DNA of 64,000 nucleotides from an uncultured Candidatus Saccharibacteria bacterium (GTDB lineage Bacteria > Patescibacteriota > Minisyncoccia > 2-02-FULL-40-12 > GWA2-44-9): positions 73,452-137,451 of the forward strand of contig CAYTBY010000001.1 of assembly GCA_964436165.1 (NCBI GenBank), written 5' to 3'. Positions within the stretch are counted from its first letter, which is position 1. The number at the start of each line of letters is the position of its first letter. A program made the translations under genes and the position numbers. Positions 20,464 to 63,600 of the stretch are shown here, piece after piece. The notes under the pieces are model-generated. The model saw only the letters and a list, made by a program, of their open reading frames with translations, made no database searches and was not told where the DNA came from.

Positions 20464-20561
20464 CCAAAATCCCGACAAGTTGTCGGGTTTTTTATTCCTA
20501 GAATTGTTGGTGTTGACACCGTCCTAACCATATGCTATCATTCTAACCGCGTTAAGGTCCT

Positions 20562-25735: not shown

Positions 25736-25764
25736 CAAAAAACCCGATCATCTGATCGGGTTTT
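25736..25764. terminator. Bidirectional terminator between convergent ABC ATPase and AAA ATPase genes
   Basis: aaaaaacccgatcatctgatcgggtttt. Confidence 0.6.
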
Positions 25765-25777
25765 ATATTGTCTTTAT

Positions 25778-36528: not shown

Positions 36529-36804
36529 TTATTTAACTTTTCTCTCAACGGATGTAAGTCGGACATCTATAGATTCAACTTTGGTTTCCAGTCGTGAAAA
36601 TTCCTTTTTTGAAGGTATTTCTAAAACAACATCGAGAATAGTTTTCAGGGTGCCGTCCATTTTATCAAAGCGGGTATCCATAGCATCAAAACGCTCATCA
36701 ACTTTAGCGAACCGGTTTGCGGTTATTTGAGCCAGAGTATTGAAGCCGACGCTTCGGTCGGCTCCCCGACCTTTCAGCGTCGGGGTTGTCATTTTCTTTG
36801 GCAT
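36529..36804 (-). CDS. Hypothetical protein (91 aa)
   Basis: ORF MPKKMTTPTLKGRGADRS… The start codon directly abuts the conserved inverted-repeat motif (see 36806-36939). Confidence 0.35.
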   Translation of the reverse strand: MPKKMTTPTLKGRGADRSVGFNTLAQITANRFAKVDERFDAMDTRFDKMDGTLKTILDVVLEIPSKKEFSRLETKVESIDVRLTSVERKVK

Positions 36805-44667: not shown

Positions 44668-44740
44668 GTAACTAGTAATTAGTAACTAGTAATTAGAAAA
44701 TTTAAGTATATTCAATTACCAATTACCAATTACCAATTAC
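44668..44740. repeat. Intergenic tandem repeats: 2 x TAACTAGTAATTAG, then 4 x CAATTAC (opposite orientation of the GTAATT core)
   Basis: gtaactagtaattagtaactagtaattag … caattaccaattaccaattaccaattac. Confidence 0.7.
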
Positions 44741-58475: not shown

Positions 58476-59321
58476 TTGTATAAATCGAAATCATTAATAA
58501 CGCTAGTTATCGGCGGCGTTCTTATGGTCGGTGTCGCCTTAGGTTCTTATATGTCAAGCGGATCGGTTCCGTTTGCTTTTGCCCATGATGATGACGATGA
58601 TGAGCAAAAAGTAGATAAAGAAGTTCTAGAGCAGTTATATTTGGCCGCTTTCGGCAGGCCGGTTGATGAGAATGGCAAGAAGTTCCATCTTGGTAAAAAT
58701 TTGAAACAAGTTTTAAGAGACATCAATAGCTCCGAAGAGCGAAGATACTATTCGGCTTTATTTAAGGCCGTAAAGGCCTATGAAGAAGCGGTGCGAGCGC
58801 CAGGTGATTTGAGCGCGGCTGATAAACAGAAATATCTTGATGCTATCAATACGGCTCTTGCAACTTTACTAGCCTGGGTTGAGACATTGCCTCAACAGCA
58901 CATTTGTAATGGAGTGGTCGGAATTATGGAGGCCCGTCAAGCTATTCAGGATGCGTATGATCGTATGAGCCCCACTGCCCAAGCTGCATCTCGAAAAGGA
59001 ATTTTCAATGCCCTGAAGCATATCGGTGGTCCTAAGAATATTGATTTACCGTTTAAGCGTTGTATAGATCCAAGCCCAACCCCGTCCCCATCTGTAAGCC
59101 CGACACCTTCAGTAACACCAACCCCAAGTGTAACTCCAACCCCGAGTGTAACCCCAACACCGAGTGCAACTCCAACCCCGACTCCTTCTGCAACTCCCAC
59201 TCCCACTCCCACGCCCTCCGCAACTCCCACCCCGACACCCGAAGTAACCCCGACTCCCACTCCGTCAGCTACCCCAACCCCGACTCCATCAGTCACTCCG
59301 ACTCCGACCCCTACTCCGTAA
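58476..59321 (+). CDS. Secreted protein with C-terminal Pro/Thr/Ser-rich tandem-repeat tail
   Basis: TTG start with RBS aaggaagg. Signal-like N-terminus. C-terminal (PTPS[VA]T)n for about 80 aa. Confidence 0.5.
59071..59318 (+). repeat. Coding tandem repeat (about 18-nt units) encoding the PT-rich linker
   Basis: ccaaccccgagtgtaactccaaccccgagtgtaacccc… repeated, degenerate. Confidence 0.7.
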
Positions 59322-60558: not shown

Positions 60559-62016
60559 ATGCTCAAAGAAAGTAGTTTAGACAAAATACTTTATAGAGTC
60601 AAGAAGCTGATTCCGGGATCAGTTTTTAATTTTTTTCAGCCGTATTATCACGCTGTCTTAGCTTATGCCGGTGCGGCTTTTTACGGTTTTCCGTCAAGAA
60701 AATTAAAAGTTATTGGTGTGACCGGAACAAAAGGCAAGTCAACCGTTGTTTATCTGGCTTCTAAATTATTAGAAGCCAGGCTTCAAGGTGGACAGAAGCC
60801 TGGCTTCGGGAAGAGTGGAGTCGCCGCTTGCGGTTCCCTTGGTTTTAAAATAAAGAGTAAGGAATGGCCAAATACTTTAAAAATGACTATGCCCGGCCGG
60901 TTTCGTCTGCAGAAACTCATGGCCGAAGCGGTTAGGGCCGGCTGTGAATACTTTATTCTTGAAGTTACCTCCGAGGGCATCAAACAGAAAAGGCATTTGG
61001 GTATTTGGTTTGATTGCGCCGTTTTTACCAATCTTCACAAAGAACATATTGAAAGCCACGGTTCATTCGAGAATTATTATCAGGCCAAGCAGGAATTATT
61101 CAGGCGGACAAAAAATATCCATGTTATCAATGCCGATGACCAGTATACCAAATTATTAGGTGATTTTCCGGCTGAACATAAAATATTTTACGGTTTTACC
61201 AAAGGTGACTTGGTTGCCGGTAATTTAAAACTTTCTGATCTCGGTTCTTCTTTTGAGGTTTATGGTACGACTTATAATATCCACCTGGCCGGGAAGTTTA
61301 ATATTTTAAATTGTCTGGCTGTTTTATCGATCGGCGCGATGTATGGCATAGATCTGCCCTCGGCAAAACATATACTAGAATCAGTCAAATTTATCCCTGG
61401 CAGAATGGAGTTTATCCCTGCCTTCGTTAAAACTTCGGCGGGCGAGCAAAAAGAACCGTTCAAGGTGGTGGTGGATTATGCACATACACCCGAGTCGTTA
61501 CGAAGTGTTTATGAAACGTTAAAAAATAGTCCTCTTTCGCGCAAGGCTTCGGAGGACGCCCAAAATACAAAACGTAAGCTTATATGTATTTTGGGCGCTG
61601 CCGGGGGCGGGAGGGACAAGTGGAAGAGGCCGGAGTTTGGGAGAATAGCGGCGCAGTACTGTGATGAAATAATTCTGACGAATGAAGACCCCTATGAAGA
61701 AAACCCAGAAGCAATTCTGGAAGAAATTGCTTCTGGGTTTTCGCAAGCGCCAAATCACAAATCATCCCGATTTTATCGAGGATCCTCGATTGCAAAGCAA
61801 TCGGGACAAATCACAAATAAATCCCAAGCTCCAAATGTCCAAAAAATTATGGATAGAAAAGAAGCCATAAAGAAGGCCTTGACTTTAGCTCAAGAGGGTG
61901 ATACTGTAATCATCACGGGCAAAGGTTCGGAGACTTCAATGGCCGTATCGGGGAATAGGAAAATTCCCTGGTCGGACAAGGGAGTTATTGAGGAGTTTTT
62001 GACGACGAAATACTGA
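60559..62016 (+). CDS. Mur ligase family protein (MurE-like)
   Basis: VIGVTGTKGKSTV (P-loop), …DYAHTPESL…; carries two in-frame repeat insertions (61529-61558 and 61751-61818). Confidence 0.7.
   Translation: MLKESSLDKILYRVKKLIPGSVFNFFQPYYHAVLAYAGAAFYGFPSRKLKVIGVTGTKGKSTVVYLASKLLEARLQGGQKPGFGKSGVAACGSLGFKIKSKEWPNTLKMTMPGRFRLQKLMAEAVRAGCEYFILEVTSEGIKQKRHLGIWFDCAVFTNLHKEHIESHGSFENYYQAKQELFRRTKNIHVINADDQYTKLLGDFPAEHKIFYGFTKGDLVAGNLKLSDLGSSFEVYGTTYNIHLAGKFNILNCLAVLSIGAMYGIDLPSAKHILESVKFIPGRMEFIPAFVKTSAGEQKEPFKVVVDYAHTPESLRSVYETLKNSPLSRKASEDAQNTKRKLICILGAAGGGRDKWKRPEFGRIAAQYCDEIILTNEDPYEENPEAILEEIASGFSQAPNHKSSRFYRGSSIAKQSGQITNKSQAPNVQKIMDRKEAIKKALTLAQEGDTVIITGKGSETSMAVSGNRKIPWSDKGVIEEFLTTKY
61751..61818 (+). 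mobile_element. MITE-like element inserted in frame in the Mur ligase gene: 12-bp direct repeats flanking a 40-bp palindromic core
   Basis: caaatcacaaat | cat-cccgatt-ttATCGAGGATCCTCGATtgcaaagc-aatcggg-a | caaatcacaaat. Encodes HKSSRFYRGSSIAKQSGQITNK between duplicated SQAPN. Confidence 0.6.
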
Positions 62017-62125: not shown

Positions 62126-62770
62126 TTGCTGATAACGGAAGATCTGTCCCTAGATCAAATCCGAAAAAAGTACGGCAAGGCATTCCCCGGGACCAGTCCC
62201 CATCACTTAGTTCCGAGAAGTAGAAATGGAAGCGGAAGTCAGTTCAATCTTTTTCCATATAAACGAGATGCCCATTCTGCCTATCATCACATTTTCTATA
62301 ACTTAAAAATTGATGAGGTTTGGAATAATCTTTCTCAAATCCATAATTCAATATTTAGTTCCGGCAATATATATATTTACCAATGGTGGATAGCTCCTTG
62401 TTCACTTGATAGGGCAGAAGATAAAGAAAGACAAGAGTTCGAAAAACAGAAACAAAAAAGAATAAATAAATTACTGCCAGCTTCTGATTTTAAGAAAAAA
62501 TGGATTAAGTGTTTCGGCAATGATTCATTGGATCATGCCAGGGTATATCTTAAATACATGATGCTCTTTATGGTTTTTGGCGTAAATATGATTAGTCCGG
62601 ATCAGCTTTTTGATAATGGTAATTTAGCAGAATTTTTTGAAACTTCTTCGTCGAAAGGCTATCGCTTATGGGCATTTGAGATATGCTTTGGGAAAAATTA
62701 TCCCAAGGTCCAAACTATTAAAGCTAAGATAAGGAAAATAATAAAAAAAGCTACCCACTCCTCTCCATAA
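62126..62770 (+). CDS. HNH endonuclease domain protein with C-terminal extension of unknown function
   Basis: TTG start with RBS aaagggga. HHLVPRSRNGSGSQFNLFPYKRDAHSAYHHIF fits the HNH pattern HH…P…GG…N…H…H. Confidence 0.5.
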   Translation: MLITEDLSLDQIRKKYGKAFPGTSPHHLVPRSRNGSGSQFNLFPYKRDAHSAYHHIFYNLKIDEVWNNLSQIHNSIFSSGNIYIYQWWIAPCSLDRAEDKERQEFEKQKQKRINKLLPASDFKKKWIKCFGNDSLDHARVYLKYMMLFMVFGVNMISPDQLFDNGNLAEFFETSSSKGYRLWAFEICFGKNYPKVQTIKAKIRKIIKKATHSSP

Positions 62771-63565: not shown

Positions 63566-63600
63566 TAGTAGTATGTAGTATGTAGTGGGTAGTAAGGAAA
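63566..63600. repeat. Intergenic short tandem repeat (TAGTA units)
   Basis: ctagtagtatgtagtatgtagtgggtagtaagg. Confidence 0.5.

Follow-up and report, generated by a model that had tools for sequence, protein, structure and literature searches.

Rickettsia palindromic elements (RPEs) were reportedly introduced by Ogata et al. in 2000 as ‘Selfish DNA in protein-coding genes of Rickettsia’. RPEs are about 100–150 bp long and restricted to Rickettsia and its relatives, their copies diverge as ordinary sequence families, and we know of no transposase for them. Other palindromic repeats that are readable in either orientation or lie within transcription units are the palindromic amphipathic repeat coding elements (PARCELs) of Mollicutes, which are longer and encode amphipathic repeats, and the Correia elements of Neisseria (or Neisseria miniature insertion sequences, NEMIS), which carry terminal inverted repeats (TIRs) and a TA duplication. 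Bacteria belonging to the candidate phyla radiation (CPR) have tiny genomes and odd insertions in their conserved proteins and rRNAs. Here we analyse a 64-kb stretch of contig CAYTBY010000001.1 (the window, by which we mean this whole stretch) and, within it, a 42-bp palindromic element that lies in frame in a murE-type Mur ligase gene.

Our overall reading, to which we assign a probability of roughly 0.7, is that the window copy is the minimal form of a small palindromic mosaic element dispersed in CPR genomes. It is best read as a non-autonomous palindromic element resembling RPEs and the repetitive extragenic palindromic (REP) elements with their bacterial interspersed mosaic elements (BIMEs), and not as a classical transposon with a target-site duplication (TSD). 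An earlier note on this DNA, made from the sequence alone, had described an element like a MITE (miniature inverted-repeat transposable element) with TIRs and 12-bp TSD-like direct repeats. The small, non-autonomous repeated element in frame in a murE-type gene is borne out by our analysis; the classic MITE footprint is not, as there is no TSD and the anatomy of the family is of the REP/BIME/RPE type, with a one-sided flank preference.

The murE insert and its empty sites

The window comes from a genome of Candidatus Yanofskybacteria-like (CPR/Parcubacteria) type and has a G+C content of 41.7%. Among solved structures, those closest to its Mur ligase are MurE enzymes, and the homologues of the gene come from Candidatus Yanofskybacteria (CPR/Parcubacteria). 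The element is laid out as TCCCGAT + TTT + ATCGAGGATCCTCGAT + TGCAAAGCA + ATCGGGA (Table 1). Its perfect terminal arms measure 8 bp (TCCCGATT at 61765–61772, AATCGGGA at 61799–61806) where the earlier note had counted 7 bp, and they enclose the perfect 16-bp palindrome that it had correctly recognised. As single-stranded DNA, the 42-mer is predicted to fold into two adjacent hairpins with one bulged base each (−11.4 kcal/mol, z −3.5), and an alternative pairing of the same bases could give a four-way junction. The 12-mer CAAATCACAAAT does flank the element, at 61751–61762 and 61807–61818 (12/12 identical), the two copies being 44 bp apart and not 40 bp as first described.

Two pairs of filled and empty sites bear on the origin of this direct repeat. 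In locus L123, which carries the gene for protein P0014, CCAAATCACAAATCA is joined directly to CAAATCACAAAA; compared with the filled window site it has exactly 42 bp less and an equal number of heptamer units. In the second pair, locus L001 (protein P0002) has the identical 42 bp between ...ACCAGTTA and CCAATTACC..., and in its empty relative, L124 (P0034), ...ACCAATTT is followed at once by CCAATTACC..., again a difference of exactly 42 bp. As the unit count is equal in filled and empty sites, the direct repeat is an older microsatellite, (CAAATCA)n, and nothing was duplicated.

These sites also decide against the classical MITE, that is, a derivative of a DDE-type insertion sequence (IS) with TIRs that would have duplicated its 12-bp target. 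The 8-bp perfect TIRs, the 12/12 repeat on either side and the multi-copy family described below, with its arms well kept, are what such an element would leave. However, the direct repeat is already present at the empty site with the same number of units, the second pair shows a 42-bp difference and no duplication, and an insertion of 44 + 12 = 56 bp would have broken the reading frame. We therefore regard a classical MITE as very improbable.

At the protein level, the unit absent from relatives comprises 42 bp or 14 residues, and not the 22 residues quoted previously: the 14 residues SRFYRGSSIAKQSG are the surplus of the window MurE over P0014 (‘SQAPNHKSQITKILD’). They lie in a loop between ‘...EEIxSGxS’ and ‘ILDRKEAI’ whose length proves hypervariable when the query is aligned with the 119 homologues that score best. 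In the comparison with orthologues that the earlier note had proposed, the insert is absent from most MurE homologues; among the 119 listed, P0002 alone has it too. The insert-bearing loop measures 33 aa in the window MurE versus 6 aa in the MurE of Thermotoga maritima. In an AlphaFold model (mean predicted local distance difference test, pLDDT, of 78.5), residues 403–416 fall within a coil (392–425, pLDDT < 50) between a helix (383–391) and a strand (426–429). The element lies precisely at the border of two heptamer units, in a surface loop of the C-terminal domain that is disordered; both the frame and the fold of MurE are therefore kept, and the peptide it encodes would be a tolerated passenger and no adaptation. 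The pentapeptide SQAPN, which had been taken for a duplication made by the insertion, does occur twice (DNA 61741–61755 and 61822–61836, 81 nt apart, 13/15 nt identical with two synonymous differences), but it is a separate loop feature and no product of the insertion.

The GGATCC centre within a perfect palindrome has the look of a synthetic linker, and a BamHI-linker or adapter chimera or a mis-assembly was thus considered. An independent European Nucleotide Archive (ENA) assembly, L002, agrees with the window at 99.9% identity, insert included, so that the element is no artefact of assembly or cloning. Independent assemblies that stem from several projects and different years (RIFCSP, NC_groundwater, ENA, JGI, Logan) also contain it, and it is in frame and has lineage-specific variable modules. 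The probability of an artefact is therefore negligible.

Table 1 Features of the murE locus in the window (positions are those of the window)
Feature	Position	Strand	Remarks
murE-type Mur ligase	60559..62016	+	485 aa, reading frame intact; Pfam Mur_ligase_M and Mur_ligase_C
Perfect 18-bp inverted repeat with 8-nt loop	61699..61742		In conserved murE codons (ENPEAILEEIASGFS); ends 22 nt upstream of the element
(CAAATCA)2 on the left side of the insertion	61751..61764	+	Pre-existing heptanucleotide microsatellite; part of the PNHKS codons
Inserted palindromic element	61765..61806		42 bp, minimal family form; MurE residues 403-416, SRFYRGSSIAKQSG
Left conserved arm, TCCCGAT	61765..61771		Pairs with 61800-61806
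Variable module H1	61772..61774		3-nt loop, TTT
Central conserved palindrome, ATCGAGGATCCTCGAT	61775..61790		16 bp, perfect; GGATCC inside
Variable hairpin module H2, TGCAAAGCA	61791..61799		Stem TGC/GCA, loop AAA
Right conserved arm, ATCGGGA	61800..61806
CAAATCA CAAAT, right of the element	61807..61818	+	Heptamer array resumed in phase

A family of palindromic mosaics in CPR genomes

Species-representative genomes (596 Gb) were searched with the pattern ATCGAGGATCCTCGAT-N(2-14)-AATCGGG. At least 119 stretches in 64 assemblies match, against about 0.2 expected by chance on our own estimate. The family counts given here rest on the at least 119 stretches listed, and the neighbourhood data on 8-kb blocks around the copies (855 kb in total). 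These loci hold 128 cores, or 130 together with L001 and the window. The 42 bp of the window are almost certainly a member of a dispersed palindromic repeat family, and the further copies whose absence would, by the earlier note, have spoken against such an element do exist in related genomes, though none lies within the window itself. The significance of the palindrome comes from these genomes: within the window, ATCGAGGATCCTCGAT taken alone is not significant, with a single match when up to 3 mismatches are allowed, 0.33 being expected and 28 of 100 shuffles reaching it.

Nearly all element-bearing assemblies among the matches listed are Patescibacteria/CPR. Their labels include Yanofsky-, Magasanik-, Wolfe-, Taylor-, Harrison-, Kaiser-, Jorgensen-, Portnoy- and Nealsonbacteria, together with Sungiibacteriota, Paceibacterota, Minisyncoccia, ‘Patescibacteria group’ and ‘uncultured Saccharibacteria’. 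Twelve loci (L017, L025, L039, L047, L052, L059, L072, L083, L087, L088, L093 and L106) are labelled Gammaproteobacteria, Rikenellaceae or Flavobacteriales. One such record was checked, L047, and a protein in it is 98% identical to a Magasanikbacteria protein, showing that its taxonomic label is wrong. Among the matches listed, many assemblies have a single core and one genome has as many as 19. IMG/VR viral contigs gave 0 matches, hence no sign of phage carriage. The searchable literature, subscription-only papers aside, yielded no description of the element, nor did the 16-mer as text; the family is apparently large and undescribed.

The family follows the plan (G)TCCCGAT, H1, ATCGAGGATCCTCGAT, H2, ATCGGGA(C), and its consensus as a whole is a perfect dyad. 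The 30-nt core (7-16-7) is near-invariant, and the arm that the search pattern did not demand was found in 113 of the 130 cores. Element length ranges from 42 to 90 bp, with ten elements at the minimum of 42 bp. The variation resides in H1 and H2, which are 3–45 nt long and include 173 distinct modules among 226. TTT is the commonest of them (8 tallies), and the H2 module of the window, TGCAAAGCA, recurs in other genomes, as does its complement TGCTTTGCA.

The variable modules are almost always perfect hairpins, with a mean perfect terminal stem of 4.3 bp versus 0.39 bp in shuffled modules. In a formal count on 29 equally long half-elements, pairing is seen in 98.9% of cells; there are 47 double-sided changes, a number attained by none of 500 shuffles (which give 15.8), and no one-sided changes. 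Mismatches in 120 distinct modules are evenly spread between G-T (13) and A-C (12), with no wobble bias. This strand symmetry and the lack of wobble intermediates point to a structure maintained at the level of DNA rather than RNA. The complete absence of one-sided intermediates means that the arms are perhaps corrected from each other by fold-back templating, and suggests such correction rather than slow compensatory selection. Template switching may be the cause of the variable hairpins staying perfect.

The alternation of conserved and variable segments, with covarying stems, would also befit a structured RNA or guide-RNA unit overlapping murE, such as a ribozyme, a small RNA or a TIGR-Tas guide. 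TIGR-Tas systems (from tandem interspaced guide RNA) have been reported for the most part in phages and in CPR bacteria, and palindromic stems are used by some of the arrays (10.64898/2026.09.09.750476). Rfam 15 at gathering thresholds returned only a tRNA from eight element-bearing loci. A search of the window region at permissive thresholds added no more than generic hairpin matches below threshold, which fall on the hairpin upstream of the element. Against an RNA stand this lack of a match to the element, the missing G-U intermediates, the strand-symmetric mismatches and a perfect dyad consensus that an RNA does not need, as well as the many copies in open reading frames (ORFs) in either orientation. 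Such a unit is extremely unlikely. A TIGR-Tas guide array in particular was ruled out, given that copies are single and not arrayed, their variable parts are self-complementary hairpins and not free spacers, neither box C nor box D could be read in the core, and no neighbour gene recurs in the 8-kb blocks.

Identical hairpin modules are shared by 13.2% of pairs within assemblies versus 0.48% of pairs between assemblies, as would be expected from copying within genomes. Modules have been reshuffled among copies, and some elements are nested within hairpin loops. Besides the full elements, 47 simple GTCCCGAY-loop-RTCGGGAC hairpins were found. Magasanikbacteria RIFOXYC2_FULL_40_16 contains a larger, BIME-like mosaic with outer inverted repeats TGTCATTRCGAG...CTCGCAATGACA. 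It runs from TGTCATTACGAG through a GTCCCGAC hairpin and GTGTAG to the element, which is followed by TAATCTCGT, more hairpin modules and CTCGCAATGACA, and it was seen at loci L015, L040, L044, L046, L060, L094 and L103.

Stop-free frames of at least 150 aa hold 46 of 113 complete copies (41%), whereas 77% of random segments fall in such frames. The family is thus under-represented in genes, yet far from excluded from them. Length is a multiple of 3 in 40 of the 46 copies in long frames versus 24 of the 67 outside them. All three codon phases are used by intragenic copies (19/8/11), which occur in either orientation and at non-homologous places; on reading, none of the six frames of the conserved core has a stop codon. 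Ten host frames were confirmed with Pfam and belong to housekeeping genes: LeuRS, topoisomerase I (TopA), an IleRS-like protein, a P-type ATPase, ArgRS, a ValRS-like protein, DnaG, PolX, a pyruvate:ferredoxin-oxidoreductase-type protein and penicillin-binding protein 2 (PBP2).

The flanks carry a signal on one side. Read outwards, their consensus is A-W-T-T-T-G abutting TCCCGAT, and TTG touches the element on 23.4% of sides versus 2.1% in the background (P = 3.5e-37); in the window it is found on the right, in the minus-strand reading. TTG on both sides was observed in 1 of 109 copies where 6 were expected (P = 0.016), and a palindromic TTG/CAA target was ruled out on this ground. There is no general direct repeat in the family flanks. 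Flank-to-flank complementarity ends 0–3 nt from the arms, and intragenic lengths are multiples of three with no added duplication; both facts count further against the MITE.

Once the element is removed, the flanks of 7 of 109 copies join as an in-phase 7-bp tandem repeat, versus 0.34% of random junctions, with units such as GGAAATT, CCAAATT, CCAATTT and CAAATCA. These seven, all heptamer arrays, are the only copies with repeat-like flanks, a rarity that a MITE with a regular TSD would not predict. Heptamer arrays hold one (W)TTG per unit on one strand, which would explain both their association with the element and its phase in them. A model in which the arrays are stacked footprints of 7-bp duplications was ruled out for murE, where filled and empty unit counts are equal. 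Perfect hairpins of at least 9 bp are also enriched in the flanks (7.8% versus 1.7%). Finally, at two loci a truncated copy follows directly on the duplicated 5′ half of a tRNA gene, tRNA-Ala(TGC) in one case and tRNA-Cys(GCA) in the other; the half ends within the anticodon loop, at ...TTG or ...CTG, directly before the element. At these loci (L032 7820–7971 and L095 825–990) the tRNA half is followed by what is present of the element, namely the left arm, H1 and the central palindrome, and then, after a short spacer, by an intact copy of the tRNA gene.

Probable mobility, history and surroundings of the element

We infer that the element is present or former non-autonomous mobile DNA. In the mechanism we propose, a trans-acting enzyme would recognise the folded hairpins by their conserved foot, in single-stranded or cruciform DNA, and copy the element. 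The element would insert 3′ of TTG, a short target on one side, would duplicate nothing and could leave without a footprint. The variable hairpins would be kept perfect at the level of DNA, either by strand-symmetric selection or by correction templated from the opposite arm. Naming a specific class of enzyme, for which the pair of REP doublets forming hairpins (REPINs) and REP-associated tyrosine transposases (RAYTs) and the ‘peel and paste’ IS200/IS605 family could serve as models, is done by analogy and remains doubtful.

A more far-reaching version, which we hold to be unlikely, is that the family constitutes an undescribed class of structure-specific mobile DNA across the CPR. Its substrate would be the four-way junction or double hairpin, its enzyme would be new to transposition, and both insertion and excision would be free of footprints. 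Together with heptamers and codon hairpins it would be a main source of lineage-specific peptide insertions in CPR bacteria, its hairpins being kept by fold-back correction and not by selection.

Several observations weigh against a mobile family as the explanation of the window copy. The window contains no second copy, whether searched with a pattern allowing 3 mismatches or with blastn-short. Around the 128 copies (1,069 ORFs clustered, at least 119 loci, 8-kb blocks) there is no recurrent transposase or other trans-acting gene, so that the cognate transposase which the earlier note had suggested looking for did not emerge. About half of the copies have no TTG. Part of the apparent invariance of the core stems from the search pattern, in which the 16-mer and one arm were obligatory, and variant cores do exist, for example ...GGATCCCGAC and ...GGATCCACGAT. 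A 30-nt core kept across many CPR lineages is unusual for elements of the REP type, and a host function could account for it. As to the murE copy itself, the exact 40-mer was found in JGI metagenomes in one further murE (of the P0002 type) and at no other locus. With the exact variant confined to murE of sister lineages, there is no evidence that it moved recently, and a single old insertion with constraint on its sequence is as likely as recent or independent insertion.

The window, L001 and L122 represent three lineages of murE in which the 42 bp are 100% identical; DNA identity over murE is only 76.8% between the window and L001, and 91.8% between L001 and L122. P0001 and P0002 are each other's closest relatives, at 85.8% identity outside the loop, all others being at 79% or less. 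By our own arithmetic, at gene-average divergence the probability of 42 unchanged bases is about 2e-5, and that of the 12 ‘free’ bases alone about 0.04. One possibility is an ancestral insertion frozen by constraint on the element, with the flanking microsatellite turning over around it (CAAATCA versus CCAATTA units). The other is that the same variant entered the homologous murE site repeatedly.

A host function is the substance of the strongest alternative, in which the element is a host-selected cis element: a site of binding, cleavage or recombination for a conserved CPR protein, with the nucleoid, replication, repair, junction-resolving or DNA-uptake machinery as candidates, or a structural element such as a terminator. 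Intragenic copies would then be tolerated by-products. The near-invariant core in metagenome-assembled genomes labelled as many CPR lineages fits this account, as does the dyad symmetry typical of sites for dimeric proteins. So does the abundance in the window of CCCGAT/ATCGGG, which is about 3-fold over-represented (46 versus 15.9 expected) and forms terminator-like CCCGAY...RTCGGG hairpins followed by T runs at 20471–20500, 25743–25775 and 36765–36800. The WTT(G) flank consensus may also resemble the cleavage preference of RuvC. A cis element of the host does not, however, readily explain copies at non-homologous places in essential genes, in any codon phase and either orientation, nor copy numbers that range from 1 to 19 cores per assembly, modules held in common within genomes as copying predicts, and the majority of orthologues that have no murE copy. 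We consider this alternative rather improbable and retain the reading as a dispersed, REP- and RPE-like palindromic element.

Among the recurrent neighbours of the copies are housekeeping genes and four-helix proteins of the 23S-rRNA-intervening-sequence type, and the 855 kb of flanking DNA showed no gene-bearing element with matching ends. Genes of the latter protein family (PF05635, ~120 aa) at L055 5071–5460, L121 3280–3642, L109 6019–6381 and L107 4881–5240 have inverted arrays of ~7-bp tandem repeats on both sides and look like cassettes.

The murE loop itself appears prone to insertion. The perfect inverted repeat in conserved codons upstream of the element has a predicted DNA fold of −18.6 kcal/mol (z −8.6) and exceeds what synonymous-codon resampling yields (P = 0.0006). 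Hairpins of differing sequence occupy the homologous position in other loci; they measure 12 bp in L001, L124 and L127, 22 bp in L125 and no more than 7 bp in L123. Resampling gave P = 0.0004–0.0008 in the three loci to which it was applied (the window, L001 and L124). The hypervariable loop begins directly after the 3′ arm of this codon hairpin, which is possibly linked to an insertion hot spot. In other Yanofskybacteria, unrelated hairpin-rich inserts fill the same loop: a 44-nt unit in two tandem copies read in two frames in L125 (P0062), ~70 nt in L126 (P0082) and a 36-nt insert inside (CCAATTT)n in L127 (P0105).

Such a site invites an explanation by local replication error, in which slippage or template switching gave birth to the palindrome in place, with no kin elsewhere. 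The variable length of the loop among 120 homologues, its position just 3′ of an 18-bp perfect hairpin and the unrelated inserts of other lineages all speak for it. However, 64 other assemblies contain the same 7-16-7 core at 128 or more places, and an independent origin of each is not credible; a birth in place is as remote a prospect as a structured RNA.

Heptanucleotide microsatellites are a general feature of these genomes. Perfect ones in the window (units CAAATCC, CAAATTC, CAATTAC x4 and GTAGTAT) are at 65–90, 97–113, 44713–44740 and 63568–63586. The 855 kb of CPR loci contain 61 heptamer runs, about 7 per 100 kb, with an enrichment of about 4.6-fold within 60 nt of the element. The runs are often in frame within genes; among the peptides that they yield in unrelated proteins (murE, LeuRS, TopA, ATPase) are SQITNHK, PISNFQF and NSKFQI. 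‘KSQAPNSK’ in the topoisomerase I of an unrelated CPR genome (L074) is similar to the SQAPN of MurE, a likeness that suggests another dispersed motif derived from a microsatellite.

Two further ORFs near murE were noted. The 214-aa ORF directly downstream (62126–62770, +) has an HNH-like look (‘HHLVPRSRNGS...N...H..HH’) and no Pfam match at E ≤ 0.01. The 281-aa ORF at 58476–59321 (+) has a long, low-complexity tail rich in (T/S)P and no Pfam match.

Significance and comparison with known systems

The family offers a concrete source, at the level of DNA, for protein insertions in CPR bacteria, being a set of palindromes found in frame in murE, aminoacyl-tRNA synthetases, topoisomerase I, primase and PBP2. 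It would be the second independent case, after Rickettsia, of selfish palindromes in the coding sequence of reduced genomes. The rigidity of the 30-nt core should allow phylogenetic profiling to find the trans-acting enzyme, and the core also serves as a simple sequence marker for CPR contigs, having exposed a metagenome-assembled genome mislabelled as Gammaproteobacteria. The perfectly compensated hairpins, in turn, form a natural data set on palindrome maintenance in DNA.

Integron attC sites and the CPR element are alike in being sites of recombination type on a folded single strand, with extrahelical bases, a foot that is conserved and a terminal structure whose sequence varies while its pairing is kept. 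However, attC sites are almost without sequence conservation and stand in cassette arrays beside an integrase, whereas the CPR element is strongly conserved in sequence and its copies are dispersed singly, also in genes. PARCELs and Correia elements have no counterpart to its conserved-variable-conserved-variable-conserved plan.

With the IS200/IS605 family and the palindrome-associated transposable elements (PATEs), the CPR element shares the lack of a TSD, apparently precise excision, what appears to be a one-sided flank signal and imperfect end hairpins with an extrahelical base. The end hairpins of IS200/IS605 have the same orientation on the active strand, whereas the halves of the CPR element form a perfect dyad, and the TTG flank signal is present in only about half of its copies. 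No TnpA or TnpB gene turned up near any copy in the 8-kb blocks.

In structure, the closest precedent is the REP/BIME/REPIN group. Both there and here, hairpin units occur singly, as inverted pairs and in mosaics, with no TSD; the inverted-dimer architecture of the CPR element resembles that of a REPIN, and folded single strands are its likely substrate. REPs are, however, extragenic by definition, while 41% of CPR copies lie in long ORFs, and REP sequences are species-specific, while the CPR core is common to many lineages. A GTAG/CGTC tag defines the REP superfamilies (PMC3733652). This tag is not general in the CPR element: of 218 sides, 10 have TGTAG, most of these in one Magasanikbacteria genome, and no RAYT gene is among the recurrent neighbours in the 8-kb blocks.

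In behaviour, the closest precedent is the RPE. RPEs and the CPR element are alike as short palindromes dispersed in reduced genomes, both between genes and in frame in essential genes such as those for aminoacyl-tRNA synthetases, where they add a short surface peptide and spare the function. Compared by description, the CPR element differs in its 42–90 bp, its near-invariant tripartite 30-nt core, its two freely varying and perfectly paired modules and its occurrence in another radiation. The phenomenon thus has a precedent, and what sets this family apart is its wide spread and the unusual rigidity of its design.

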